Shown in pieces: positions 7,536-38,045 of a stretch of DNA of 64,000 nucleotides; the first letter of the stretch is position 1; every line of letters begins with the position of its first letter. The stretch covers positions 60,494-124,493 of the forward strand of contig CAWFPX010000010.1 of the NCBI GenBank assembly GCA_963817765.1. The letters are read 5' to 3'. This DNA is from an uncultured Thermoleophilia bacterium. Its GTDB lineage: Bacteria > Actinomycetota > Thermoleophilia > Gaiellales > Gaiellaceae. The notes under the pieces are model-generated. The model saw only the letters and a program-made list of their open reading frames with translations. It was not told the DNA's origin and ran no database searches. A program made the position numbers and the translations under genes.

Positions 7536-7558
7536 TTCGGCGTCCGCGAAACCGCGCG

Positions 7559-7575
7559 TTGTGGAAATACCACAA
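7559..7575. promoter_or_regulatory. operator-like palindrome TTGTGG-AAATA-CCACAA upstream of the gltD-like/por/ppdK operon
   Basis: Perfect 6-5-6 inverted repeat in a locally AT-richer patch, 57 nt upstream of the ATG at 7632. Confidence 0.4.
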
Positions 7576-7631
7576 GGCGATCCGCGGTCCCGCTGATGCC
7601 GGGGCCGACCGGCGGCAGGAGACTCGGACCG

Positions 7632-8950
7632 ATGAGTTTCGACGTCGTGTCACCGGTCGCACTGTCTACCGAGCTTCGACCGCCCCTTCGCTATGAGGAG
7701 GCGCTGCTCGAGGCCGACCGATGTCTCGCCTGTGGCGGCCTCTACGCCGAAGCGCCGTGCACCGCCGCATGCCCCGCCCGGGTCGACGTCTCGTCCTTCG
7801 TCGAGGCGATCGCCGACGGCGACGTGCTCGCGGCCGCGGAGACGATCTTCGCCGAGAACATCCTCGGCGGGACGTGCGCGCGGGTGTGCCCGGCCGAGGT
7901 TCTCTGCGAAGGGCGCCTGCGTGCTCGCTCACGAGGGCCGGCGACCGATCGCAGATCGCCGCCTTGCAACGCTTCGCAACGGACCAGGCGCTCGAATGCG
8001 AGCTGCCGATCCGGCGGCCCGCTCCGCCAACCGGGCGGAGGGTCGCAGTCGTCGGCGCGGGACCGGCAGGGCTCGCCTGCGCCGGGGAGCTCGCGGCGCG
8101 CGGCCACTCGGTCACTGTCTTCGAAGCGCGCGACGAGATCGGCGGCCTTGTTCGGTTCGCAATCGCGCCGTACCGGATCGAGCGGGAGCCGCTCTCCGCC
8201 GAGCAGCGGGCTCTCGAGGCGCTCGGCGTACGGTTCGAGCTCGGCGCGTCCGTGACCTGCCTCGATCGTCTCGCCGGCTACGACGCTGTGTTTCTCGGCG
8301 TCGGTCTGGGCGCCGACGTCGAGCTCGAGCTCCCCGGCAGCGACCTTCCGGGTGTGTGGGAGTCACTGCCGTTCATCGAGGCGTTGAAGACCGGCACCCC
8401 GCCCGCGGTTGGGCGGAATGTGGTCGTGATCGGGGGCGGAAACACCGCGATCGACGTCGCTCGCGAATCGCTCCGTCTCGGCGCCGCGAGCGTCACGATC
8501 GCGTACCGCCGCACAGCGCTCCGACATGCCGGCCTACGCGTTCGAGGTCGAGGAGGCGGAACAGGAAGGCGTGCAGTTCGCCTGGCATGCCTTGCCGGTC
8601 AGGCTGCTGGGGTCGGGTCACGTCACCGCCGTCGAATGCATCTCGATGCGGGCTCGGCGCACCTGATGCGAGCGGCCGCCGCCGCCCCGAACCGGTTCCC
8701 GGGACCGAGTTCGTCTCCCGGCCGACACCGTCGTCAAGGCGATCGGCCAGCAGCCCCGGCGCGAGCTCTCGAGCGGTTCGGCGGCTTCGAGCTCGCCCGA
8801 GGGCTGATCGAGGTCGACGAGTCCGGCCGCACCTCGAACCGCCGTGTCTACGCCGGCGGCGACGCGGTCGAACGGCGGCGCGAGCGTCGTCGAGGCCGTG
8901 CGGCGAGGGCAAGCGCGCCGCCGCGGCGATCGACGGAGAGCTTCCGGTGA
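7632..8950 (+). pseudogene. GltD/PreT/SudA-like NAD(P)H oxidoreductase (Fe-S + FAD/NAD folds); at least 3 frame breaks
   Basis: [14 protein letters not shown] and CARVCP cysteine motifs, then [35 protein letters not shown] and [14 protein letters not shown]. The pieces lie in ORFs 6711.., 7721.., 7693.. and 8844... Confidence 0.7.
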
Positions 8951-15765: not shown

Positions 15766-16890
15766 TCAGCGAGCGGTTGTGCGTCGAAGATCGAGCAGGT
15801 CCTGCAAGCTCGAAGCGGCGATCTCGGCGCCCTGCCGGCGAAGTACCCCGTGCGCCGACGGCGGCGCGATCGCGACCACGAACGCGAAACCCGCGGATTG
15901 TGCTGCCGTGACGCCTGCGGCGGTCGTCTCGAACGCGGCCGACCGGGCGGGCTCGACCTCGAGGTGCCGGCAGGCGGCGAGGAGCACGTCGGGCGCGGGC
16001 TTGCTCCGCAGCCGTTCCCTCACCATCACGTTGCCGTCGATCGACTCGTCGACGAGCTCGGCGATGCCCGAGCGGGCGAGCATGATGCCGTTGCTGGCGC
16101 TGGCCGAGACCACTCCGATGCCGAGCCCGGCGGTGCGCGCGAGGCGCAGATAACGGCGCGAGCCCGCGAACGCTTTGATGTGTCGCTCGCGCAGCAGCCG
16201 CTCGAGCACCTCGCGCTTGCGGTTCGCGAGGCCGTTCACCGTTTCGCTTCCGGCGAGGTCGCGGCGATCGCCTTCGGGCAGACGGATCCCGCGGCTCGCG
16301 AGAAACGCTCGCACGCCCTCGAGGCGCAGCTTGCCGTCGATGAGCTCCGAGTAGTCGCCGCGGGGATCGAACTGGGCGAACCGGCCACCAGCGCGCTCGC
16401 TGCGCCGCCTCAGGAGCTCGTCGAACGTCTCCTTCCAGGCTTCGACGTGGACCGCGGCGCTCTCGTCGAGGACGCCTTCGGAGTCGAAGATGCAGGCGCG
16501 GACACCCGGCGGCAACCCGAGGAGGCGGGGAATGTTCGACGTCGGCACCTGCAGGTCGGAGAACCAGCCGTCGATCCCGCGGTCTCGGGCGAGCGACTCG
16601 AGTGCGAGCCCTGCCGAGGTGCGCTCGCTGCTGAGAGCCGCGGCGCGTCCCCGCAGCGCCTCCGTGGATAGGAACGAGGCCGTCGCGTGAAGCGCCGTCT
16701 CCGCCTGATCCAGCGCTGTGCGCCACGTCGCACTAAGGTGGTCGAGGTCGTCCTCGCCCACAGACGTACTCACGCCGGACGCGCCGGCCGGCTCAGGCCG
16801 AAACGTCGAAGGCGCTGCTGCGTGCGTCTGCTTTCGGCTGCGCGCGGCGATTGTGCGCCCGGGACGGGAGGGGCGAGCTCGCGTGGTCAT
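15766..16890 (-). CDS. HAD-superfamily hydrolase (beta-phosphoglucomutase-like) with ~130-aa N-terminal extension
   Basis: CIFDSEGVLDES (motif I), later GVVSASASN and KPAPD. Start taken at the third Met of ORF 15766..17124, so that it lies downstream of ackA. Confidence 0.6.
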   Translation of the reverse strand: MTTRARPSRPGRTIAARSRKQTHAAAPSTFRPEPAGASGVSTSVGEDDLDHLSATWRTALDQAETALHATASFLSTEALRGRAAALSSERTSAGLALESLARDRGIDGWFSDLQVPTSNIPRLLGLPPGVRACIFDSEGVLDESAAVHVEAWKETFDELLRRRSERAGGRFAQFDPRGDYSELIDGKLRLEGVRAFLASRGIRLPEGDRRDLAGSETVNGLANRKREVLERLLRERHIKAFAGSRRYLRLARTAGLGIGVVSASASNGIMLARSGIAELVDESIDGNVMVRERLRSKPAPDVLLAACRHLEVEPARSAAFETTAAGVTAAQSAGFAFVVAIAPPSAHGVLRRQGAEIAASSLQDLLDLRRTTAR

Positions 16891-16972
16891 CGCCCACTGA
16901 GTCTCGGTGCCGGCCAAGCCTGTGGCGTCGGGGAAGACCGTGGTCGTTCGCTGTGGGAAACCCGCAACGCGC

Positions 16973-20809: not shown

Positions 20810-21229
20810 TCAGCGGACAGTGACGGTCAGCGTGAGGACGTTGTCCTCACCCATCGTCTTGACGCCCTTCATGTAGTCCTCACCGGGCTTCGTCGTGAAG
20901 TGATACGTGCCGGCGTGGGGGAAGGTCACCTTGAGGGTCGCGCCCATGTGGCTCATCGTGTGCGAGCCGGAGAACACGACGGCGGAGCCACTCTTCTTGA
21001 TCAACTGGTGCGACATCACGTCGTTGTCGGTGAAGGTGATCGAGCCGCCGGTAGACAGCTTCAGAGCGGCATGCGGCGTGTAGGGGCCACTGCCGACCGA
21101 CCAGGCGTGACAGCCCATCATCTGGTGGCGGATCGTGACCGACGCGTGCCGCGGCGAGGCCGCGAGCGCACTGGTGGCGACGACAGCGCCAACGGCAAGT
21201 AGTGCGATGAGTGCGGCAACCGACTTCAT
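20810..21229 (-). CDS. secreted Met/His-rich cupredoxin-fold-like protein
   Basis: Signal peptide MKSVAALIALLAVGAVVATSALA, then MMGCHAW, VMSHQL, GSHTMSHMG and GTYHFTTKPGEDYMKG. Fold assignment is tentative. Confidence 0.4.
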   Translation of the reverse strand: MKSVAALIALLAVGAVVATSALAASPRHASVTIRHQMMGCHAWSVGSGPYTPHAALKLSTGGSITFTDNDVMSHQLIKKSGSAVVFSGSHTMSHMGATLKVTFPHAGTYHFTTKPGEDYMKGVKTMGEDNVLTLTVTVR

Positions 21230-21438
21230 GAGAGCTCCGTTTCGTCGAGAATCAATGTCAACTCGCAACCTGACACCGAACGGGCGCGGATGAATGGGCG
21301 GATTCGCTGAACCGATGGCCGTAGTTCGCCGCAGGTCGCCGGTGAGCGGGAGTGAGCCGCAAGAACTCGTAGAAACTCGCGGCCGGGGTCGGGGAACTCT
21401 CGGATGCGTCCGGTTCGCTTCCTGACGAAGCTCCGACC

Positions 21439-21645
21439 ATGCTCGACGAGGTACAGCTGACGGAACGGGAGCGGGTGGCAGCGGTGATGCTTGCGTACGG
21501 GCACACCAATCGCGAGGTCGCGCGCCAGTTGCGGGTGTCCGTCCGCACGGTTGAGTCGGAACGTGCTCGGGTCATGCGGAAGCTCGGTTTCCAGCAGCGG
21601 GCGCAGCTTGTGCGTTGGGCGCTCGAGCGCGGTCTTTTGCGCTAG
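21439..21645 (+). CDS. 68-aa GerE/LuxR-type HTH-only protein (copy 1)
   Basis: Whole length is one HTH domain (LTERERVAAVMLAYGHTNREVARQLRVSVRTVESERARVMRKLG). Its paralogue at 27994 differs by one residue. Confidence 0.75.
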   Translation: MLDEVQLTERERVAAVMLAYGHTNREVARQLRVSVRTVESERARVMRKLGFQQRAQLVRWALERGLLR

Positions 21646-21785
21646 ATGGCCGTCCCGACAAATGTGGGAAACCCGAAATGCGGTTCCGCACGCGCCACGA
21701 TGGCGCGGCGCAGCGCTGAGCCGAGACTCCTCGAAACGGTCGAAGGCGATGAGAGCGTCGGCCCTGAAGAGAAGGAGTAGGGAAC

Positions 21786-22454
21786 ATGCGTAAGTTTTTC
21801 GAAATCGGTGGGCTCGTCGCAGCCGTCGTCCTGATCGCCTTCGGTGTCGTGACGATCGCGATGGGCGTCAATGGACGTGACACGGTGGCTTCGTCGCTGA
21901 AGACCGAGCAGATCACCGGGACGCCTGACATGACGCCGGCCGGGATCACCGCCGCGGCGCAGAAGGCGAAGCTCGATCTGAGCAAGATCTCCATTCCGTC
22001 TTGCTCGGTGGCCAACGAGGCGGTCAACACCGGGGCGAAGGCACGTTGCTTCGCGCAGTACATGCAGATTCATGCGCTGGAGGCGACCGGCGGGTTCGTC
22101 TATGCGCAGATGGGTCAGTTCCAGGCGAAGCCCGGAACGCCGAAGGCCGAGTTGACGCCTGACGGTGCCACCTCGAACAAGGAGTTCGCGGTCCTTGATC
22201 CGAAGACGCAGCAGCCCGTCGCCAACGGCGCCCGCAACGTCTGGGTGACGGAGACGGCGCTGACGACGGCCCTGAACACCTCGTTCATGGCCTCGCAGCT
22301 CGGGCTCTTCGCGATCGTCGTCGGGTTCGCGCTTCTGCTCAGCGGGTTCGGCTTCGCGATCCTCGCGATCGGCGGAGCACTCCGCAACCCCGAGACCGCC
22401 CTGACCTGGTTCTCCCACAAGCCGGCGACACCGACCGCGATCAACCCGGCCTAA
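21786..22454 (+). CDS. bitopic membrane protein of unknown function (copy 1)
   Basis: N-terminal TM (IGGLVAAVVLIAFGVVTIAMGV), ~140-aa ectodomain with 2 Cys, C-terminal TM (LGLFAIVVGFALLLSGFGFAILAIGGAL). RBS AAGGAG 8 nt upstream. Confidence 0.7.
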   Translation: MRKFFEIGGLVAAVVLIAFGVVTIAMGVNGRDTVASSLKTEQITGTPDMTPAGITAAAQKAKLDLSKISIPSCSVANEAVNTGAKARCFAQYMQIHALEATGGFVYAQMGQFQAKPGTPKAELTPDGATSNKEFAVLDPKTQQPVANGARNVWVTETALTTALNTSFMASQLGLFAIVVGFALLLSGFGFAILAIGGALRNPETALTWFSHKPATPTAINPA

Positions 22455-22474
22455 ACCGCCAACCCCCAACCACC

Positions 22475-22510
22475 GCACGAAGAAGGCCGCTTGCGCGGCC
22501 TTCTTCGTGC
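22475..22510 (+). terminator. 16-bp perfect hairpin after the membrane-protein gene (copy 1)
   Basis: gcacgaagaaggccgc-ttgc-gcggccttcttcgtgc. Confidence 0.65.
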
Positions 22511-22564
22511 GTCAGCGTTGTCTCACCCGCCGTGCTCCCGTGGGCCCGGCGCGTTTGCTCACAC

Positions 22565-22745
22565 GGACATGGCCGGTGTCAGACACTGTTCGCTCGCCCT
22601 TCCAGCCACGTCCCGGGCCGCCACGTCCGGTGTCAGACACGCGCACGAAACGGTGACGACTCATCCAGAGGTGGCCACTCACGCGCTACGGAACGGCTTT
22701 GGGGCTGGGTTCAGCGCGCGGACATGGCCGGTGTCAGACACGCGC
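22565..22745. repeat. tandem non-coding repeat array (copy 1; one truncated unit)
   Basis: Core ggacatggccggtgtcagacac(gcgc) at 22565 and 22720, partial core at 22627-22644. The units are homologous to those at 29120-29349. Confidence 0.8.
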
Positions 22746-22897
22746 ACGAAACCGTGACCACACGCCCACGAACCACTGCCACTCGTCGACGGGTCAGCCA
22801 CCCGGCCAGCGCGGTGTTGCTTCGCCCCGGTCGGGCGGTGCCGAAACGGTCGGAGACCGGGCCAGCGGCGCGCGGGCCGGCTGTTCCTCCAGCAGGG

Positions 22898-23150
22898 CTA
22901 TTCCTCCAGCAAGCCCTGGGCGATCGCGTAGCGGACGAGCGCCGCACGGCTCGAGAGGTGGAGCTTCGTCATGATGTGGGCGCGGTGCAGGACGACCCGC
23001 GTTACGTGCGTGAGGTTCGCGGCCGGTGCGACGGGCTACGTCCTGAAGGAGGCGGCTGATGTGGAGGTCGTCGCTGCGGTGCGCGAGGTTGCGCGTGGCG
23101 GCCGCTACGTCCATCGGGAGCTCGGCGCGCGGCTGATCGCGGCCGAGGCT
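22898..23150. pseudogene. rearranged remnant of a NarL-type response regulator
   Basis: 22898-22988 encodes, on the minus strand, ..HRAHIMTKLHLSSRAALVRYAIAQGLLEE*. 22989-23150 encodes, on the plus strand, QDDPRYV..GATGYVLKEAADVEVVAAVREVARGGRYVH.ELGARLIAAEA. Both match the intact regulator at 29500-30157. Confidence 0.8.
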
Positions 23151-23201
23151 CCGTGCTGCCCAAGCCGAAGCTGCGGAAACTATGGTTAGGCCCGGCGGGG
23201 G

Positions 23202-23576
23202 TCAGATCGCGGCAGCGTCTGGATGGCAGGCGAAGATGCTCGGCCGCACCTCCACAAGGGTGCCCGCGAGTGCTGCCGTGCCGGCGCCGATCGGCGCCGA
23301 GACCGTGAGAACGCCGTCACGGACGCGGGCGTGGAGGTTCCGCATGTCCGCCTCGTCGGGAAGCTCGAACGAGCGCTTGAACACCTTGCTTCGCTCCATC
23401 AGCAGGTAGTGGCCGCTGTGCGCCACCGGGCGGCGGCCGCTGACCGTGACCGTGTGCCCCGATGCCTCGACATCGAGGACAGCGTGCTCGAGACCGGGCA
23501 CCTCGACTTCGAGGTGGATGCTCTCGCCGTCATCGATCACGTCGGCTAGCAGGTGGTCTGTCTCGTCGATCAGCAT
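23202..23576 (-). CDS. Hsp20/alpha-crystallin small heat-shock protein
   Basis: HLEVEVPG..VTVSG.R....HYLLMERSKVFKRSFELP...DGVLTVSAP pattern. Starts 9 nt after the USP stop. Confidence 0.8.
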   Translation of the reverse strand: MLIDETDHLLADVIDDGESIHLEVEVPGLEHAVLDVEASGHTVTVSGRRPVAHSGHYLLMERSKVFKRSFELPDEADMRNLHARVRDGVLTVSAPIGAGTAALAGTLVEVRPSIFACHPDAAAI

Positions 23577-23585
23577 GGCCGGTCC

Positions 23586-24056
23586 TCAGCCGACGAAATT
23601 GGCGTTGAGGGAAGGGACAGGCTCCTCGACGTACTCGGCCGCGACCGGAACGACGATCACCGGGACGTGCGCGTCGTGGACGACCTCGGCCGAGACGCTC
23701 CCGGCCATCGCGCGGCGGAGCCTGCCGAAACCGTGGGTGCCGCAGACAATCGCGTCGGCCCCGATCTCATCGGCGACGTGAGCGATCGTGCGAGGAGTCG
23801 CGTGATGCGTCGTCTCGACCAGCAGTTCGACATCGACGCCTTCGGCGTTCAACTCATTGACCTGGGAGCGAATCTTCGCCTTCCGGTCGGTCTCGTCAGC
23901 AAGCAGGGGTGCTCCTCCGACGCGACCACCCCCGAAGCGCTGGTCGCAGAAGAAGGCCACGATGCGTCCACCGGGCTGGAGCAGGCTCCGCGCCTCGGCG
24001 AGCGCCACATCAGCTTCAGCCGATGCGTCCGTCGCCCAGAGAAGTGTCGCGTACAT
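23586..24056 (-). CDS. universal stress protein
   Basis: MYATLLWATDAS.. and C-terminal GTHGFGRLRRAMAGSVSAEVVHDAHVPVIVV. Start is Met98 of ORF 23586..24347. Confidence 0.85.
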   Translation of the reverse strand: MYATLLWATDASAEADVALAEARSLLQPGGRIVAFFCDQRFGGGRVGGAPLLADETDRKAKIRSQVNELNAEGVDVELLVETTHHATPRTIAHVADEIGADAIVCGTHGFGRLRRAMAGSVSAEVVHDAHVPVIVVPVAAEYVEEPVPSLNANFVG

Positions 24057-24384
24057 GACGACTCCTTTCGATCGACACCATCGTCCCGCACGGTGGTCCG
24101 CTCGGAATCGGCTAGAACCCCGATCGGCATGTGGTGAACTACGGGATCCCTGAGGACCGTCGACGATCTTCGCTTCGCGGAGTCGCAGAGTACGCGACGG
24201 TGCGTCGCAAGGATCGGATGACCCCGAATCCGCCCACCGATTCTCTGAGCACCGTCTCGACAGTTGCGATTGGCCCGAACGGTACGATCGGTAGTTCCCC
24301 ACACCTTCGATTTCGTGCCGGCACGGATGCCTCCGGGGGCGTCGCACAGAACCATTGCGGCTAACGACCGGAAAGGAGCTCCAG

Positions 24385-25449
24385 ATGACCTCAATGCTCG
24401 AACAGCCGAAGACGCTGACCGGTGCCGACGCGAAGACCTACCGCGCCGCCGTTGTCCATGACTTCGAAAAACCGCTCACAATCGACGAGATCGACAGGCC
24501 CGAGCTCGCGCACGGCCAAATCCTCGTGAAGGTCGAGGCCTCGGGTCTCTGCCATACCGACATCCACGCGGCTCACGGCGACTGGCCGGTCAAGCCGAGC
24601 CTGCCGTTCATTCCCGGGCACGAGGGCGTCGGGATCGTGGTCGCGCTCGGCCCCGAAGTGACCGAGGTCGAGCTCGGAGACCGCGTCGCGATGCCGTGGC
24701 TCGGCTATGCCTGCGGTGTTTGTGACTACTGCGTCTCCGGGCGCGAGACGCTCTGCCTCGAGCAGAAGAACACGGGTTACTCGATCGACGGCGGCTTCGG
24801 TGAGTACGCGCGGGCATATGCACGTTACGTCGTGAAGGTCCCGGCGAACGTCGACCCATTCGACGCTGCCCCGCTCACTTGTGCGGGCGTCACGACCTAC
24901 AAGGCCGTCAAGGTCGCCGGAACGAGGTCATCGGATCTCGTCGCCGTATTCGGGGTCGGCGGACTCGGCCACATGGCGATCCAGTACGCGCAGATTGCGG
25001 GTGGCCGGGTGATCGCGGTCGACCTCGTCGACGAGAAGCTCGACCTGGCCCGCGAGCTCGGCGCCGAGTTCACGGTGAACGCCGCCAAGGAGGATCCTGT
25101 CGCGGCGATCCAACGTCTCGGAGGTGCAGATCAGGCAATCGCCCTGGCAGTATCGCCACGGTCGTTCGAGCAGGCGTACGGATCGCTCCGGCGCGGAGGC
25201 ACGCTGGTCTTCGTTGCGCTTCCGGCGGACAACGAGATGATCTTGCCGATCTTCGAGACGGTGCTCCAGGGGATCACGGTCGTCGGCTCGATCGTCGGCA
25301 CCCGCACCGACCTGCGTGAGGTGTTCGAGCTTCACGCCGCAGGCAAGACCACGGTGACGCGCGAGATCAGGCCGCTCGACCAGGTGAACGAATCAATCGC
25401 CGATGTCGAGGCAGGTCGCGTGCCCGCGAGAATCGTGTTCTCGATGTGA
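24385..25449 (+). CDS. Zn-dependent alcohol dehydrogenase (AdhA-like)
   Basis: GLCHTDIHAAHGDWP, PGHEGVG, CGVCDYCVSGRETLC and GVGGLGH. RBS GAAAGGAG. Confidence 0.85.
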   Translation: MTSMLEQPKTLTGADAKTYRAAVVHDFEKPLTIDEIDRPELAHGQILVKVEASGLCHTDIHAAHGDWPVKPSLPFIPGHEGVGIVVALGPEVTEVELGDRVAMPWLGYACGVCDYCVSGRETLCLEQKNTGYSIDGGFGEYARAYARYVVKVPANVDPFDAAPLTCAGVTTYKAVKVAGTRSSDLVAVFGVGGLGHMAIQYAQIAGGRVIAVDLVDEKLDLARELGAEFTVNAAKEDPVAAIQRLGGADQAIALAVSPRSFEQAYGSLRRGGTLVFVALPADNEMILPIFETVLQGITVVGSIVGTRTDLREVFELHAAGKTTVTREIRPLDQVNESIADVEAGRVPARIVFSM

Positions 25450-25486
25450 GACGCGACTGCTCGCGGAAAACGCGGGAGACCAGAAG

Positions 25487-25517
25487 GCGGGGTGGCTTCG
25501 ATCCGAGGCCACCCCGC
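25487..25517 (+). terminator. hairpin after adh
   Basis: gcggggtggc ... gccaccccgc (10-bp stem). Confidence 0.45.
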
Positions 25518-25558
25518 GAAGGACGGGATACGGATCTCACCAAGGAGATGCAGCAACG

Positions 25559-26104
25559 ATGATTAGTCCGCTGCTTGTGACCTACGCTTCGAAGCGGGGC
25601 TCGACCAAGGAGGTCGCGGAGGCAATCGCTGAGACGCTCCGCGAGCACAATCCCGACGTCGAGCTCCGACCAGCGACTGACGTCGTGCGCCTGGAGGACT
25701 ACAGCGGTGTCGTTCTCGGTGGGGCCCTCTACACCGGGCGGCTGCACAGAGACGCGCGCACCTTTCTCAGGAGAAATCGCGCTGAGCTTGTTTCGTTGCC
25801 GTTTGCGGTGTTCGCGATGGGACCAAAGACGATCGGGACGACCGAGCTCGCCGGATCGCGAGCACAGCTCGATCGAGCACTCGCCGCCGTGTCGGAGGTC
25901 GAGCCGATCTCCGTCGCGATCTTCGGCGGCGTTGTCGACCCGGCGAGGCTGCGTTTTCCGTTCAACCGCATGCCTGCAACCGATGCCCGGGACTGGACGG
26001 CGATCCGAACCTGGGCGGATGAGCTCTCGAGACTCCTTGCGCGACCCGCCGAGGAAACGCTTCCGCCCGGCGAGGTATCGACCGCAGCCGCTCTCACGGA
26101 CTGA
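25559..26104 (+). CDS. flavodoxin-domain protein
   Basis: LVTYASKRGSTKEVAEAIAETL.. flavodoxin-like N-terminus. Met53 of ORF 25403.., RBS AAGGAG. Confidence 0.6.
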   Translation: MISPLLVTYASKRGSTKEVAEAIAETLREHNPDVELRPATDVVRLEDYSGVVLGGALYTGRLHRDARTFLRRNRAELVSLPFAVFAMGPKTIGTTELAGSRAQLDRALAAVSEVEPISVAIFGGVVDPARLRFPFNRMPATDARDWTAIRTWADELSRLLARPAEETLPPGEVSTAAALTD

Positions 26105-26183
26105 CCTGGTGGCTGAGCAACTGACTGCCGTAGCGCGGGGACGTGAGCAGACGCCTGGTCGTCCCAGAGCCTCGCCCTTGCTG

Positions 26184-26549
26184 ATGATCGAGCTCGTGGT
26201 GGCGGTGAACGCACTCGGCGGAGGGATCTACGGGCTCATGGGCGCGAAGGGTGTACCGCGAGAGTGGCTTGAAGGCACACCATTTCGCAGCTACCTGATC
26301 CCGAGCCTCGTCCTGCTCGTTGCGGTCGCAGGTAGCGCCGCCGTCGCCGCGGCCGCACTCATCGCCGCTCACGAGCGCGCTTCGGAAGCCGGCATCGTCG
26401 CCGGCGTGACTTTGATCGGCTGGATCGTTGTGGAGACCGTGGTCATTCCCTTCAGCTGGCTTCAACCGACCTTTTTCGCGATCGGCATCGCGATCGTTGG
26501 GCTCGGCCTGCGCCGCCGTGCACAGTTGCAACGAGATATCCGGTCGTAG
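26184..26549 (+). CDS. small integral membrane protein
   Basis: Four predicted hydrophobic helices (LVVAVNALGGGIYGL, LIPSLVLLVAVAGSAAVAAAALI, IVAGVTLIGWIVV, FFAIGIAIVGLGL). Confidence 0.5.
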   Translation: MIELVVAVNALGGGIYGLMGAKGVPREWLEGTPFRSYLIPSLVLLVAVAGSAAVAAAALIAAHERASEAGIVAGVTLIGWIVVETVVIPFSWLQPTFFAIGIAIVGLGLRRRAQLQRDIRS

Positions 26550-26620
26550 CAGCACGGGGAGGAGAGCCAAGCGAGACCCTCTCAAGTTGCAGTAGCCGCT
26601 GGCCTCCAGCGGGTGCAGGC

Positions 26621-26911
26621 TCAGACGGTTTCCGCCCGCGAAGCCCAGTCTCGCTTGGCCTCCTCCTCCATTTGTTCCAGCCGCGTGTAGTAGTCCGCGA
26701 ACTCGTTCAGGTGTGCGCGCGCGATCTTGCCGGTGACGTGCGGGTCGTCGCCGGTGACGTTCGTGGCAAGGTCGTGCAGGCCGTGCTCCAGTTCGACGTT
26801 CATTCCGACACGGAACTCCTCGACGTCGAACGGTGAGCTCTCCCAGTCGATGCCGATCTCTTCGCCGACTCGTCTTGCTTCCTCAGTTGTGAAGCTCTGC
26901 CCCTTAAACAT
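26621..26911 (-). CDS. conserved hypothetical protein (NVELEHG motif; DUF5661-like from memory)
   Basis: 96-aa acidic ORF with good RBS (GAAGGAGG). Family name is recalled, not verified. Confidence 0.45.
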   Translation of the reverse strand: MFKGQSFTTEEARRVGEEIGIDWESSPFDVEEFRVGMNVELEHGLHDLATNVTGDDPHVTGKIARAHLNEFADYYTRLEQMEEEAKRDWASRAETV

Positions 26912-27055
26912 CTGAAGCCTCCTTCGTGATCAGCTTGTGACGGGCAGCGACTCCCACCCGCATCTGGCCCGCCAGAACCGCCGTGCCAAGATCACCTCGA
27001 CGGGCTGAGGCCTGATCTTGCTTCGTACCTTTGCGCAGCTCCGGTCCTTTCGGAA

Positions 27056-27313
27056 TCAGTCGTGTTCGGGCTTGCGGAGCCCGTACTTCGCCACGGCCCA
27101 GGTGCCGATAGTCGCGAAGAGCGCCACGGCGACTGCTGACGGGACGCTCGAGCTCGTGCCACCGGGTGTGATAGAGGTGATGTTCGGCCCGAACATTGCG
27201 TCGAACAGCACCGCGAGCCACATCACTGTGATCGCCAGCGACGCCCACATCTCCGTGATCCGAAGCCAAGCGAAACGGCTGTCGACCGAGGACGCGTGCG
27301 AAGTCACACTCAT
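27056..27313 (-). CDS. small membrane protein
   Basis: ATG at 27313 preceded by GGAAGGAGG. Two hydrophobic helices (MWASLAITVMWLAVLF; AVAVALFATIGTWAVA). Confidence 0.5.
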   Translation of the reverse strand: MSVTSHASSVDSRFAWLRITEMWASLAITVMWLAVLFDAMFGPNITSITPGGTSSSVPSAVAVALFATIGTWAVAKYGLRKPEHD

Positions 27314-27642
27314 TTTTTCGGCCTCCTTCCTTCGAGGCCAGCGTGGCACGCGGTGGCCCGGAGGGCATCCGCGAAAATGCTGAACCTGGCTCGGTAGATC
27401 ATCCAGCCACTTGCTCTTCAGCACGCCAAACGGCGTACGCACTGAGTTCTGATACGGGGATCTACGGTTTCGAAGCTGGGAGTTCCCCGGATGCGGACGG
27501 AGCTTCTTGCCGGCAATCTGGGCGGTGCAACAGATCGGAGTCGTCGGTAGGACAAACGCCGAGCCCGACCACCGGAGGCAGAACCCATCCAAACGCGGTG
27601 GCTCGACGCAACGAAATCGAACCGGTCTGGCGAAGGTCACCT

Positions 27643-27670
27643 GGGCCCGCGAAGAGCGGGCCCTTTTTCT
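27643..27670 (+). terminator. canonical intrinsic terminator with no ORF upstream
   Basis: gggcccgc-gaaga-gcgggccc followed by TTTTTCT. The only clear T-tract terminator I saw in the window. Confidence 0.65.
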
Positions 27671-27993
27671 GCGGGTCCGCACGGAGCGCGGGACCGCGAA
27701 TCGACCGATGCCCTGCTGCCGACCCGGGCGGACGATGCTTCCGGCCGCGTCTGCCATCATCCGCGCAGTTCCTGCACCTGCCGGTGGGCTTTGAACGCCA
27801 GGCCCCTTTGTGGTGACCGTCGATCTCGCAAGCGTTCGCAAGAGGAAGAGCGAGTAAACGATGGTCCACGCCCGCGTTCCTCGACTTGCAGCGAGCATCA
27901 ATCATCGACATTGCTCCAGAACCCGTAGAAGTGCGCGCTGCACCGGGGAGAATCTCGGACTGCGTGCGGTTTGTTTGGTGACGATGCTTCGGC

Positions 27994-28200
27994 ATGCTTG
28001 ATGAGGTGGAGCTGACGGAACGGGAGCGGGTGGCAGCGGTGATGCTTGCGTACGGGCACACCAATCGCGAGGTCGCGCGCCAGTTGCGGGTGTCCGTCCG
28101 CACGGTTGAGTCGGAACGTGCTCGGGTCATGCGGAAGCTCGGTTTCCAGCAGCGGGCGCAGCTCGTGCGTTGGGCGCTCGAGCGCGGTCTTTTGCGCTAG
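27994..28200 (+). CDS. 68-aa GerE/LuxR-type HTH-only protein (copy 2)
   Basis: Differs from copy 1 by Q6E. Four of the five nucleotide differences are synonymous. Confidence 0.75.
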   Translation: MLDEVELTERERVAAVMLAYGHTNREVARQLRVSVRTVESERARVMRKLGFQQRAQLVRWALERGLLR

Positions 28201-28340
28201 ATGGCCGTCCCGACAAATGTGGGAAACCCGAAATGCGGTTCCGCACGCGCCACGATGGCGCGGAGCAGCGCTGAGCCGAGACTCCTCGAAACGGTCGAAG
28301 GCGATGAGAGCGTCGGCCCTGAAGAGAAGGAGTAGGGAAC

Positions 28341-29009
28341 ATGCGTAAGTTTTTCGAAATCGGTGGGCTCGTCGCAGCCGTCGTCCTGATCGCCTTCGGT
28401 GTCGTGACGATCGCGATGGGCGTCAATGGCCGTGACACGGTGGCTTCGTCGCTGAAGACCGAGCAGATCACCGGGACGCCTGACATGACGCCGGCCGGGA
28501 TCACCGCCGCGGCGCAGAAGGCGAAGCTCGATCTGAGCACGATCTCGATTCCGTCTTGCTCGGTGGCCAACGAGGCGGTCAACACCGGGGCGAAGGCACG
28601 TTGCTTCGCGCAGTACATGCAGATTCATGCGCTGGAGGCGACCGGCGGGTTCGTCTATGCGCAGATGGGTCAGTTCCAGGCGAAGCCCGGAACGCCGAAG
28701 GCCGAGTTGACGCCTGACGGTGCCACCTCGAACAAGGAGTTCGCGGTCCTTGATCCGAAGACGCAGCAGCCCGTCGCCAACGGCGCCCGCAACGTCTGGG
28801 TGACGGAGACGGCGCTGACGACGGCCCTGAACACCTCGTTCATGGCCTCGCAGCTCGGGCTCTTCGCGATCGTCGTCGGGTTCGCGCTTCTGCTCAGCGG
28901 GTTCGGCTTCGCGATCCTCGCGATCGGCGGAGCACTCCGCAACCCCGAGACCGCCCTGACCTGGTTCTCCCACAAGCCGGCCACACCGACCGCGATCAAC
29001 CCGGCCTAA
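28341..29009 (+). CDS. bitopic membrane protein of unknown function (copy 2)
   Basis: Differs from copy 1 by K66T plus three synonymous changes. Confidence 0.7.
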   Translation: MRKFFEIGGLVAAVVLIAFGVVTIAMGVNGRDTVASSLKTEQITGTPDMTPAGITAAAQKAKLDLSTISIPSCSVANEAVNTGAKARCFAQYMQIHALEATGGFVYAQMGQFQAKPGTPKAELTPDGATSNKEFAVLDPKTQQPVANGARNVWVTETALTTALNTSFMASQLGLFAIVVGFALLLSGFGFAILAIGGALRNPETALTWFSHKPATPTAINPA

Positions 29010-29033
29010 ACCGCCAACCCCCAACCACCGCAA

Positions 29034-29061
29034 CGAGAAGGCCGCGCAAGCGGCCTTCTCG
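29034..29061 (+). terminator. 12-bp perfect hairpin after the membrane-protein gene (copy 2)
   Basis: cgagaaggccgc-gcaa-gcggccttctcg. Confidence 0.6.
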
Positions 29062-29119
29062 CCGTTCTCACGTGTTGACTCACCCGCCGTGGTTCCTGAG
29101 ACCGCGGCGTTGCGCGGAC

Positions 29120-29349
29120 GGACATGGCCGGTGTCAGACACGCGCACAAAACGGTGACGACTCGCCCACAGATGTGGCACCTACCCGCGACGAAACAGCT
29201 TCGGGGCTGGGTGCCGCGCGCGGACATGGCCGGTGTCAGACACGCGCGCGAAACCGTGACCAAACGTCCACTGGGGGGCGCTGCACTCGCGACGAAGCGG
29301 CTTGGGGGCTGGGCTCCGCGGCCGGACATGGCCGGTGTCAGACACGCGC
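29120..29349. repeat. tandem non-coding repeat array, 102-bp period (copy 2)
   Basis: Identical 26-nt core ggacatggccggtgtcagacacgcgc at 29120, 29222 and 29324. The inter-core 76 nt align without gaps at 52/76 identity. Confidence 0.85.
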
Positions 29350-29499
29350 ACGGGACAGTGACCGCACGCGCACGAAACAGTGACGACTCGTCGACGGGTG
29401 AGTCACCTGACAAGCGCGGTGCTGCCTCGCACGGGCGGCCGGCGCCGACGGTCGGACACCGGCCCGCGGCGCGCCGGCCGGACAATTCCTCCAGCAGGG

Positions 29500-30157
29500 C
29501 TATTCCTCCAGCAGAGCCCTGGGCGATCGCGTAGCGGACGAGCGCCGCGCGGCTCGAGAGGTGGAGCTTCGTCATGATGTGGGCGCGGTGCGTCTCGGCG
29601 GTGCGAACGGAGATGAAGAGCTGCTTCGCGATCTCCGAGTTCGTATAGCCGAGAGCAAGCAGCCGCAACACTTCGCGTTCGCGGTCGGACAGCGGGTCCT
29701 CGTCGGCCTTGCGCGCCGCCTCGGCCTCGGCGGCGATGAGCCTCGCGCCGAGCTCCGGATGGACGTAGCGCCCGCCACGCGCGACCTCGCGCACCGCAGC
29801 GACGACCTCGACGTCTGCCGCTTCCTTCAGGACGTAGCCGGTCGCACCGGCGGCGAACGCCTCGCGGACGTAGCGCGGGTCGTCCTGCATGGAGAGCACC
29901 AGCACCTTGGTGTCCGGATGCTCCTTCAGGAGCGTCGGAATCACATCGAGACCGCTGCCGCCTGGCATCACGACGTCCATGAGGATCACGTCCGGCTTGA
30001 GGCTGCGGGCTTCGAAGATCGCCTCGCGGCCGGAGTTGGCCTCGCCGACCGGTTCGATCCCGTCCTCCTGGTCGAGCAGCAGGCGGATGCCCGTGCGTAC
30101 GACAGCGTGGTCGTCGACGATCAGCACACGGACGGCCGGCTCCACGTTCGTGACCAT
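29500..30157 (-). pseudogene. NarL/DevR-type response regulator; 1-nt insertion near 29514 removes the stop
   Basis: VLIVDDHAVVRTG, DVILMDVVMPG, and HTH LSDREREVLRLLALGYTNSEIAKQLFISVRTAETHRAHIMTKL. The copy-1 remnant shows the native end AIAQGLLEE*; here the frame runs on to 29006. Confidence 0.85.
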
Positions 30158-30296
30158 AGCGCGAGCATTCGGGCGCTTGATCCGTGAAAACCCGCAGAAC
30201 GAGGTGGGCTGCCTCCTGATGGCGGCGGGCTCCGGCCGCTCTAGCCTGCGTGCATGACGGGGAGCTCTCGCGATCCTGTGGACGATCGGCACCGAG

Positions 30297-32192
<1,896 letters not shown>

Positions 32193-37574: not shown

Positions 37575-38045
37575 CTAGCCGATGAAGCTCGCGTTCAGCG
37601 CTCCCACCGGCTCGAAGACGTGCTCGGGAGCGGCCGGCACGATGATTACAGGGACGTGCGAGTAGTGGATGAGCTCGGCGGAGACGCTGCCGGCAATCGC
37701 CCGCTGGAGACCGCCGAAGCCGCGCGTACCACAGACGATCGCGTCGACGCGAAGCTCGTCGGCCGTCCGAACGATCGTACGCGGCGTCGCGCGCTGTGTC
37801 GTCTCGACGAGCAATTCGGCGTCGACCCCTTCGGCGTTCAATTCCTCGACCTGGGTGCGGATCTTTGCCGTCCGCTCGGCCTCGTCGGCGAGCAGAGGTG
37901 CCCCGCCGACACAGGCGCCGCTGGAGCGCTGGTCGCAATGGAAGGCCACGATCCGTCCGCCGGGCTGGAGGAGCCTCTTGGCCTCGGCGAGTGCGAGATC
38001 GGCGGTCGCCGATCCATCGGTCGCCCACAGAAGTGTCGCGTACAT
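37575..38045 (-). CDS. universal stress protein (paralogue of 23586..24056)
   Basis: MYATLLWATDGS..GTRGFGGLQRAIAGSVSAELIHYSHVPVIIV. Start is Met68 of ORF 37575..38246. Confidence 0.85.
   Translation of the reverse strand: MYATLLWATDGSATADLALAEAKRLLQPGGRIVAFHCDQRSSGACVGGAPLLADEAERTAKIRTQVEELNAEGVDAELLVETTQRATPRTIVRTADELRVDAIVCGTRGFGGLQRAIAGSVSAELIHYSHVPVIIVPAAPEHVFEPVGALNASFIG

Follow-up and report, generated by a model that had tools for sequence, protein, structure and literature searches.

We analysed a 64-kb stretch of DNA (hereafter the window; 68% G+C) from an uncultured Thermoleophilia bacterium, in which a unit of about 1 kb occurs twice as a direct repeat, at positions 21439–22454 and 27994–29009, with an offset of 6,555 nucleotides (nt). 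Each copy holds a gene for a 68-residue stand-alone GerE/LuxR-type helix-turn-helix (HTH) protein, here termed HTH68 (21439–21645, plus strand, in copy 1; 27994–28200, plus strand, in copy 2), a 140-nt spacer, and a gene for a 222-residue membrane protein, here termed MEM (21786–22454 and 28341–29009, both plus strand). The two copies differ at 10 of 1,016 nt, with a single change in the spacer, at 21709; the duplicated unit is thus as the preliminary description of this DNA had reported it. The comparisons below incline us to see the two genes as adjacent members of a larger stress regulon, each with a promoter of its own.

Nine of the differences between the copies are in coding sequence: five in the 68-residue gene (four synonymous changes and Q6E) and four in the 222-residue gene (three synonymous changes and K67T). 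Seven of these nine are synonymous, compared with about 26% synonymous sites (binomial P ~0.002; ~0.017 if four changes that fall together within the opening 16 nt of the repeat are set aside). The earlier observation that the changes are mostly synonymous therefore stands, but its use as the principal evidence for selection does not, because there are only nine coding changes, four of them at the edge of the tract. Orthologues provide the stronger evidence: their ratios of non-synonymous to synonymous substitution rates (dN/dS) are 0.04–0.21 for HTH68 and 0.10–0.32 for MEM, and both genes encode real proteins under purifying selection.

The two proteins

HTH68 matches Pfam family PF00196 (GerE) over residues 6–61 with a score of 54.5 bits (gathering cut-off, 23.5) and has no further Pfam domain, in agreement with its previous identification as an HTH-only protein. 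No match to the receiver family PF00072 was found and the protein begins at the HTH itself, which sets it outside the NarL/FixJ response regulators. The family comprises 119 clusters, nearly all of 67–68 residues. In a tree of HTH domains, 28 stand-alone proteins form a single clade, well apart from the tight clade formed by the DNA-binding domains of the regulators encoded nearby. Because this clade is separate and monophyletic, HTH68 appears to be an old, independent lineage; a recent truncation of the adjacent regulator as its source is ruled out on the same grounds. Its short length appears genuine and not the product of a mis-called start: all lineages have a −10-like hexamer 6 nt ahead of the ATG, which implies that translation starts there, on a leaderless transcript. 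HTH68 and the regulator have a common recognition-helix framework, SVRT.E..RA..M.KL, in which two invariant His residues of the regulator are replaced by E and R in HTH68, and overlapping, non-identical DNA specificities are plausible for the two proteins.

MEM belongs to a family of more than 8,000 clusters at 90% identity, all of them significant matches, with 985 representatives at 50% identity and none annotated; as sampled here, the family is large, uncharacterized and found only in Thermoleophilia. An AlphaFold2 model built from 33 family members (pLDDT 91, pTM 0.73) has two long helices, residues 2–41 and 148–199, with two short helices and irregular structure between them. This model is consistent with one transmembrane (TM) helix at each end, enclosing a predicted extracytoplasmic domain of about 120–140 residues. 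That domain carries Cys72 and Cys87, which are conserved across the family and are absent together in two members, a pattern that fits a disulfide bond on the outer face of the protein. The two terminal TM helices and the two outward-facing Cys residues described before are thus borne out by the model and by family conservation. Conserved Gly residues in both TM helices (G9, G20, G180 and G187) suggest tight helix packing or self-association. The predicted cytoplasmic parts amount to about 5 N-terminal and 25 C-terminal residues, the C-terminal tail being variable in sequence and lowest in model confidence (pLDDT 65–72).

Neither sequence nor structure searches linked MEM to a well-characterized family. 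It matches no Pfam or NCBIfam family, comparison with sequence profiles of Protein Data Bank (PDB) entries yielded no relative (best E 3.1), and the best Foldseek matches of its model had E values of 0.39 in the PDB and 0.07 in BFVD, both with TM-scores below 0.33. An exact-sequence look-up of the window's 222-residue protein found no record. A search with PADLOC gave no match for MEM and otherwise only HTH-level noise, and a defence-system reading was dropped for that reason.

Co-occurrence and promoter architecture

Two surveys of gene order were made: one based on MEM, covering 80 genome loci, and one based on HTH68, covering close relatives (about 70% identity or more). HTH68 lies directly 5′ of MEM in 9 of the 80 loci, whereas MEM occurs without HTH68 in 71; in two loci (L070 and L076) a full-length regulator occupies the upstream position that HTH68 would take. 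In the other direction, every close HTH68 relative examined is followed by a palindrome and then by MEM: this holds for nine genome loci, for six loci found through the homologues P0008, P0056, P0282 and P0340 (L081–L086), and for 12 metagenome loci. A lack of co-occurrence in other genomes, which the preliminary description would have taken as a refutation, is thus seen by half: the genes go together when starting from HTH68 and mostly do not when starting from MEM. The MEM proteins linked to HTH68 fall into at least three clades of the MEM tree, so the pairing seems to be old and to have been lost, or never present, in most paralogues. These counts do not support the idea that the pair is an obligate two-component module.

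Alignment of the 170 nt 5′ of the membrane gene across loci revealed a conserved 15-bp palindrome whose centre is A/T-rich, TGCGG-N5-CCGCA, located between about −95 and −160 relative to the MEM ATG; a weight matrix was built from these sites. In copy 1 the predicted operator TGTGGGAAACCCGAA spans 21663–21677 (centre 21670) and begins 17 nt past the HTH68 stop codon, this distance being 10–25 nt in every HTH68 locus examined. It is followed on the plus strand by the box TTCCGC (21684–21689), by CCACGATGGCG (21696–21706), which includes GATGG (21699–21703) starting at +29 from the palindrome centre, and by a −10-like hexamer, GAGACT (21723–21728; +53 to +58 from the centre), which predicts a transcription start near 21735. 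The 5′ untranslated region (UTR; 21738–21777, plus strand) contains a possible hairpin, GGTCGA...TCGGCC (21738–21763), and ends with the ribosome-binding site AAGGAG (21772–21777), ahead of the ATG at 21786. The promoter of copy 2 (28218–28283, plus strand) has the same parts, with the palindrome at 28218–28232, GATGG at 28254–28258 and the −10-like hexamer at 28278–28283, and differs from copy 1 at one base.

Over the 884 kb of loci, the matrix scores 85 matches at 14 bits or more, of which 48 fall in the 140-nt zone 5′ of MEM, and 48 of the 80 loci have a site between −200 and −60 of the membrane gene. All loci outside the training set of the matrix (L081–L099) have a site. The window itself holds four sites of at least 16 bits, where 0.06 would be expected, and two of these (centred at 7567 and 16959) lie far from the unit. 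The boxes downstream, which are not part of the matrix, keep a fixed geometry: in 63 of 107 sites, GAT[GT][GC] is exactly 28–29 nt away from the centre of the palindrome, and across 60 oriented sites the second and sixth positions of the −10-like hexamer at +53 are conserved as A and T, as is typical of actinobacterial −10 hexamers. When oriented by the GATG box, the composite consensus reads TGCGGgaAacCCGCA, four bases, ggtTCcG, a short gap, CcCcGATGgC, about 17 bases and cgAnacT. A scan for the sigma-70 consensus gave no match, as expected for a GC-rich lineage. The 140-nt spacer is, on this comparative evidence, a predicted regulon-type promoter and operator belonging to MEM itself, present with or without HTH68 and conserved far beyond this genome; it is not a passive linker within a pair.

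HTH68 appears to have a promoter of the same kind. In copy 1 (21367–21432, plus strand) a weak or variant operator, TCGTAGAAACTCGCG (21367–21381, centre 21374), is followed by GATGC at 21403 (centre +29) and by GAAGCT at 21427–21432, which lies at +53 to +58 with the spacing seen in the regulon promoters and ends 6 nt before the ATG. Every HTH68 lineage inspected has a NANNNT hexamer 6–7 nt before the ATG and no Shine–Dalgarno sequence, an arrangement that implies a leaderless HTH68 messenger RNA. Such a messenger in turn supports the +53 element as the −10 hexamer, which would centre the palindrome near −65 and place GATGG in the −35 region; in an alternative geometry, GATGG would be the −10 hexamer and the palindrome would lie at −41. 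We treat the element of the HTH68 promoter as a weak variant of the TGCGG-N5-CCGCA operator. A separate operator class for HTH68 promoters, CCGTAG-AAA-CTACGG, was considered and not adopted, the half-site variant also occurring in hybrid sites before other genes.

In related genomes the composite promoter lies, correctly oriented, 5′ of genes for alcohol dehydrogenase, universal stress proteins (USPs) and cupredoxin/cupin proteins, and in the window it also precedes a gene for a haloacid dehalogenase-type (HAD) hydrolase and an operon, named by reading its translations and which we take to be GltD/2-oxoacid:ferredoxin oxidoreductase-like. Because this promoter is common to many different genes, it defines a regulon. 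The operator before the operon is TGTGGAAATACCACA (7560–7574, plus strand), with GATGC at +29 and GAGACT at +52. The best-scoring operator of the window, TGTGGGAAACCCGCA (21.4 bits; 16952–16966, minus strand), lies between ackA and the HAD-hydrolase gene; GAGACT follows on the minus strand at +54, with an ATG some 10 nt beyond it, so that the HAD-hydrolase gene has an almost leaderless start. Both copies of the composite promoter are complete, in the regions 7560–7640 and 16880–16970, and the GltD/2-oxoacid:ferredoxin oxidoreductase-like genes appear frameshifted.

Sites linked to HTH68 differ in one respect. Where HTH68 precedes MEM, the proximal half-site of the MEM promoter is usually CCCGAA or CCCGTA, whereas unlinked promoters keep CCGCA and vary in the distal half (Fisher P ~1e-3 on unique sequences, a test that ignores phylogeny). 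The variant is rare in unlinked loci, where CCCGTA was seen in L015, L021 and L071.

The GGTCGA...TCGGCC pair of the UTR recurs in about 20 loci, where it flanks a variable loop of 13–20 nt just 5′ of the MEM ribosome-binding site, with changes from U·G to U–A in some of them. The folding energy is unexceptional (z about −0.2 to −1.5), a search of 21200–23300 against Rfam with E values up to 1 gave no match, and RNAalifold found no consensus among 18 untranslated regions, partly because of alignment register. A riboswitch or attenuator was considered for this element and dropped, given the missing RNAalifold consensus and unexceptional stability.

The adjacent two-component system and the proposed regulon

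Among the 80 loci, 38 contain a NarL-type regulator and a GAF-domain kinase, and 32 have the regulator in convergent orientation at a distance of no more than 700 nt; 30 loci contain USP genes and 16 contain alcohol dehydrogenase genes. Neighbours checked against Pfam include phosphoketolase, acetate kinase, HAD hydrolase, cupin, cupredoxin-like, Hsp20 and flavodoxin-like proteins, single and tandem USPs, zinc alcohol dehydrogenase, DUF5661 and a GAF/HisKA_3 kinase. By content, the neighbourhood looks like a fermentation and dormancy island. One of its members, a 152-residue secreted or anchored protein encoded at 20810–21268 on the minus strand, has a sub-threshold match to cupredoxins (plastocyanin/amicyanin); its gene is conserved beside the cupin gene and directly 5′ of HTH68, and in L059 and L068 the regulon operator precedes it.

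In the window the kinase gene (30490–32192, minus strand) encodes a DosT/DevS-like protein of GAF-GAF-HisKA_3-HATPase type and is split over at least three frames. Intact orthologues have 542–548 residues, and the four-domain architecture is seen in L081, L083 and L085. The first GAF domain of the L083 kinase matches DosT (PDB 2VZW) with an E value of 2.4e-44 and DevS with about 1e-40 (range to 6e-40), and the GHPPM stretch is aligned. In mycobacterial DosT and DevS this stretch holds the heme-ligating His. By homology, the neighbouring kinase is a true relative of DosT/DevS, and the proposed link of the pair to a DevS/DevR-like system is upheld by this match and by the 38 loci. Within the kinase region of the window (29403–32192, minus strand), one of the breaks falls in the heme-pocket stretch, and several related contigs of metagenome-assembled genomes (MAGs) have similar breaks; these could be assembly indels rather than signs of a pseudogene.

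The regulator gene is intact in copy 2 and a remnant in copy 1, as described earlier. In copy 2 (29006–30157, minus strand) the receiver and GerE domains occupy about 29504–30157 and beyond them the frame stays open across three 102-nt repeats as far as 29006; orthologues have 218 residues. The frame has no stop codon at the usual place, and a similarly long frame (339 residues) is present in L002. In copy 1 the remnant (22913–23149) consists of the 3′ end of the HTH region (about 22913–22990, minus strand) abutting an inverted receiver fragment (22983–23149, plus strand). The best PDB matches of the regulator, which has both receiver and GerE domains, are VraR (E 1.2e-39) and then DevR (3C3W, E 2.4e-32). 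Between regulator and kinase, a conserved open reading frame of 96–100 residues lies on the opposite strand (30258–30545, plus strand, in the window; 11485–11781 in L081; 5786–6088 in L083). It has a third-position G+C of 0.85, occurs in 16 loci with 39–75% identity and matches no Pfam family.

NarL/NreC/DosR-type dimers bind GC-rich palindromes with a short A/T centre. The NarL-type regulator is probably the protein that binds the palindrome, because of its adjacency, the content of the targets and the case of L077, where a site is oriented into an operon of USP, kinase and regulator genes; L080 has a site at the equivalent position, with orientation unassigned.

We therefore lean, with reservations, towards reading the 1-kb unit as two adjacent, separately promoted members of a stress regulon encoded by the neighbouring DosT/DevS-like kinase and NarL-type regulator in a Gaiellales-like member of the Thermoleophilia. 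In this model the kinase would sense low O2, NO, CO or a change in redox state, and the phosphorylated regulator would bind the palindrome as a dimer and turn the regulon on. MEM would serve as an envelope effector of the response, not as a sensor, in the form of a helical hairpin of two TM segments with a disulfide-stabilized outer cap and Gly-rich TM helices that perhaps self-associate. HTH68 would be a receiver-less GerE-type factor induced with the regulon, binding the operator 17 nt past its own stop codon; it could thereby tune the MEM gene, and possibly other operators, independently of phosphorylation, as a competitor or a co-activator.

Several observations weigh against this model. 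The regulator was assigned as the binder on the grounds of its position and of how GerE-family dimers generally behave; the palindrome is unlike the DosR box of mycobacteria, and the regulator has a recognition helix (SVRTAETHRAHIM) other than that of DosR. Part of the enrichment of sites was counted in the same upstream regions on which the matrix had been trained. About 40% of the MEM loci show neither a nearby two-component system nor a strong site. Autoregulation of the kinase and regulator would find its oriented site in L077 only, and in most loci the site in the intergenic region between kinase and alcohol dehydrogenase points to the dehydrogenase. Finally, the strict adjacency of HTH68 to MEM, the CCCGAA/CCCGTA half-site and an LTWF motif in the cytoplasmic tail of MEM, found only in HTH68-linked proteins and in most of these (a correlation that ignores phylogeny), hint at a more specific link between the two genes than co-regulation.

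The alternative that survives best, which we regard as unlikely, is that another regulator (of the Crp/Fnr or Rex type, or one encoded elsewhere) binds the palindrome, so that both genes would be mere targets and HTH68 would regulate unrelated genes. The targets (alcohol dehydrogenase, the ackA/xfp neighbourhood, an oxidoreductase and USPs) are also typical of Rex and Fnr regulons, TTGTGGAAATACCACAA at 7557 superficially resembles boxes of the TGTGA type, and around many of the loci that have a site, a two-component system is missing from the nearest 5 kb. However, the 5-5-5 spacing and GCGG core are unlike the Crp, Fnr and Rex consensus sequences, and GC-rich palindromes with a short A/T centre are the form expected for dimers of the NarL, NreC and DosR type. 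The site moreover co-localizes with kinase and regulator genes in about half of the loci, and that of L077 is oriented into their operon.

Less probable still is the membrane sensor or anti-activator first suggested for MEM, in which HTH68 and MEM would form a dedicated signalling pair: MEM would sense an extracytoplasmic cue, for example through the redox state of Cys72–Cys87, and hold HTH68 at the membrane or release it, as an anti-activator or tether, and would in this way control transcription. Such a pair would account for the invariable succession of HTH68 and MEM among close HTH68 relatives, for the broad co-divergence of the two proteins within clades, for the restriction of LTWF to HTH68-linked MEM and for the conservation of the outward-facing Cys residues. 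Yet HTH68 is absent from about 90% of the MEM loci (71 of 80), and the cytoplasmic surface available for holding a partner is small, poorly conserved and modelled with low confidence. By both measures MEM departs from anti-sigma factors and anti-activators, its cytoplasmic part falling below the typical size of at least 60 residues and its co-occurrence with a partner not being obligate. MEM also has its own regulon-type promoter regardless of HTH68, as do the USP and dehydrogenase effector genes, and the LTWF correlation leaves phylogeny out of account. A more elaborate version is somewhat more doubtful again. It would make MEM an extracytoplasmic redox sensor that signals from Cys72–Cys87 through the TM hairpin and the LTWF tail to HTH68, a minimal transmembrane switch by which a signal from the envelope would reach a DosR-like regulon, the main kinase of which responds to cytoplasmic gases only, with CCCGAA/CCCGTA as the HTH68-specific site.

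That HTH68 is a decaying, receiver-less leftover of a response regulator, accidentally placed and now functionless, is very improbable: full-length regulators do occupy the same co-directional position in L070 and L076, 118–141 nt before MEM, and copy 1 shows that regulators here do break, but the nearly uniform length across the 119 clusters, the low dN/dS, the monophyletic clade distinct from the DNA-binding domains of neighbouring regulators and the leaderless promoter conserved in all lineages argue against it.

The regulon model places the locus closest to the DosS/DosT–DosR (DevS/DevR) system of Mycobacterium tuberculosis. Both have a soluble kinase with tandem GAF, HisKA_3 and HATPase domains, the first GAF being about 50–55% identical with HPPM included, a NarL-type regulator and a palindromic operator. 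Both also have USP-rich targets, with Hsp20 and dehydrogenase genes nearby, and in some loci a USP gene heads the kinase–regulator operon. The DosR box is a 20-bp palindrome with GGGAC/GTCCC half-sites, in contrast to the TGCGG-N5-CCGCA operator found here. The regulator here has a different recognition helix and VraR as its best PDB match, the promoter has the extra fixed boxes TTCCG and GATGG, and the predicted regulon includes the Thermoleophilia-specific MEM and, in one clade, a receiver-less HTH protein. The comparison supports saying that the system works like DosR; it does not support saying that its regulator is DosR.

In size (about 70 residues) and in consisting of the PF00196 HTH only, HTH68 resembles GerE of Bacillus subtilis and single-domain LuxR proteins such as the cyanobacterial PedR. 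PedR is among the weak NCBIfam matches to HTH68 (43 bits; cut-off, 120). The HTH68 scores for NCBIfam families are far under the cut-offs, so no orthology is indicated, and HTH68 lacks a Cys residue for PedR-like redox control. Unlike these proteins, it appears within a two-component regulon and invariably directly 5′ of the same membrane gene. In Actinobacteria, single-domain LuxR proteins form a recognized major subfamily (PMC3466318).

For MEM the nearest parallel, by analogy only, is Rv1733c, a DosR-regulon membrane protein of M. tuberculosis that has two TM helices and is of unknown function (PMC5715279). The two proteins agree in length (about 210–220 residues) and in having one TM helix near each end, the membership of MEM in a hypoxia regulon being a prediction. 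No homology was detected: profile comparison gave a probability of 0.1%, a result that counts as a lead only because the Rv1733c sequence used was provisional, and the NCBIfam scan of MEM gave no match either. Feedback regulators of the MgrB type are likewise membrane proteins with a conserved outward Cys pair within a response-regulator regulon. MgrB has about 47 residues as against 222 and is not homologous to MEM, and feedback of its kind would not be available here because the kinase is soluble, with no TM segment, and so offers no membrane partner to inhibit. A literature search on Gaiellales in connection with DosR, and on receiver-less DosR-like proteins, found nothing specific.

The Thermoleophilia, Gaiellales included, count among the most abundant Actinomycetota of soil and are largely uncultured. 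For them, the locus outlines in testable form a DosR-like regulon, for dormancy or hypoxia, that lies outside the Mycobacteriales. With it comes a previously undescribed composite promoter of fixed geometry that could be used for genome-wide regulon prediction, and the locus also draws attention to a very widely distributed, lineage-specific family of envelope proteins whose fold is predicted with confidence and has no match. The leaderless, receiver-less GerE protein may show how regulons gain phosphorylation-independent modulators. The regulon would extend a known kind of system without overturning a known principle, its value lying mainly in opening to experiment the dormancy of a soil lineage that is abundant and poorly known.

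Origin of the two copies

The near-identity of the copies runs from the ATG of the small gene to just before a hairpin at 22477–22508, a perfect 14-bp inverted repeat with a 4-nt loop that reads as a terminator-like element between the convergent genes. A simple terminator scan did not report this hairpin because it has no T-tract. Upstream of the two small genes the flanks are homologous and only about 70% alike, and that of copy 2 is closer to L003 than to L001, a resemblance that points to exchange between paralogous loci by recombination or gene conversion. Given this divergence of the promoter flanks, the identical tract of 1.06 kb appears to have arisen by gene conversion between two paralogous loci of greater age, of which one has lost its regulator; a fresh duplication of a self-contained module is disfavoured on the same ground.

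The closest public sequences, at about 91–92% DNA identity, are L001 and L002, contigs of an uncultured Thermoleophilia MAG. The remaining relatives come from MAGs of Gaiellaceae, Gaiellales, Solirubrobacterales and Miltoncostaeaceae, and a few short contigs are probably mis-binned. L001, L003 and L081 each have a single copy of the unit, in the order cupin, cupredoxin-like, HTH68, MEM, convergent regulator, kinase and USP. Compared with L001, an additional 6.55 kb (22586–29141) separates the membrane gene from the regulator in the window. This segment contains the broken regulator, genes for Hsp20, a USP, an alcohol dehydrogenase, a flavodoxin-like protein, a small membrane protein and a DUF5661 protein, and the second HTH68–MEM copy.

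Two further repeats occur in the window. The repeats of about 102 nt, with the core GGCCGGTGTCAGACACGCGC, lie between the MEM terminator and the 3′ end of the regulator, at 22564–22770 (plus strand) and 29081–29410; there are two to three copies at each of these sites, L001 and L002 have a single copy apiece, and the rest of the window has none. A second direct repeat, 23588–23887 and 37577–37876, is 76% identical over 300 nt; its first copy lies in the USP gene beside Hsp20, and the two are presumably USP paralogues.

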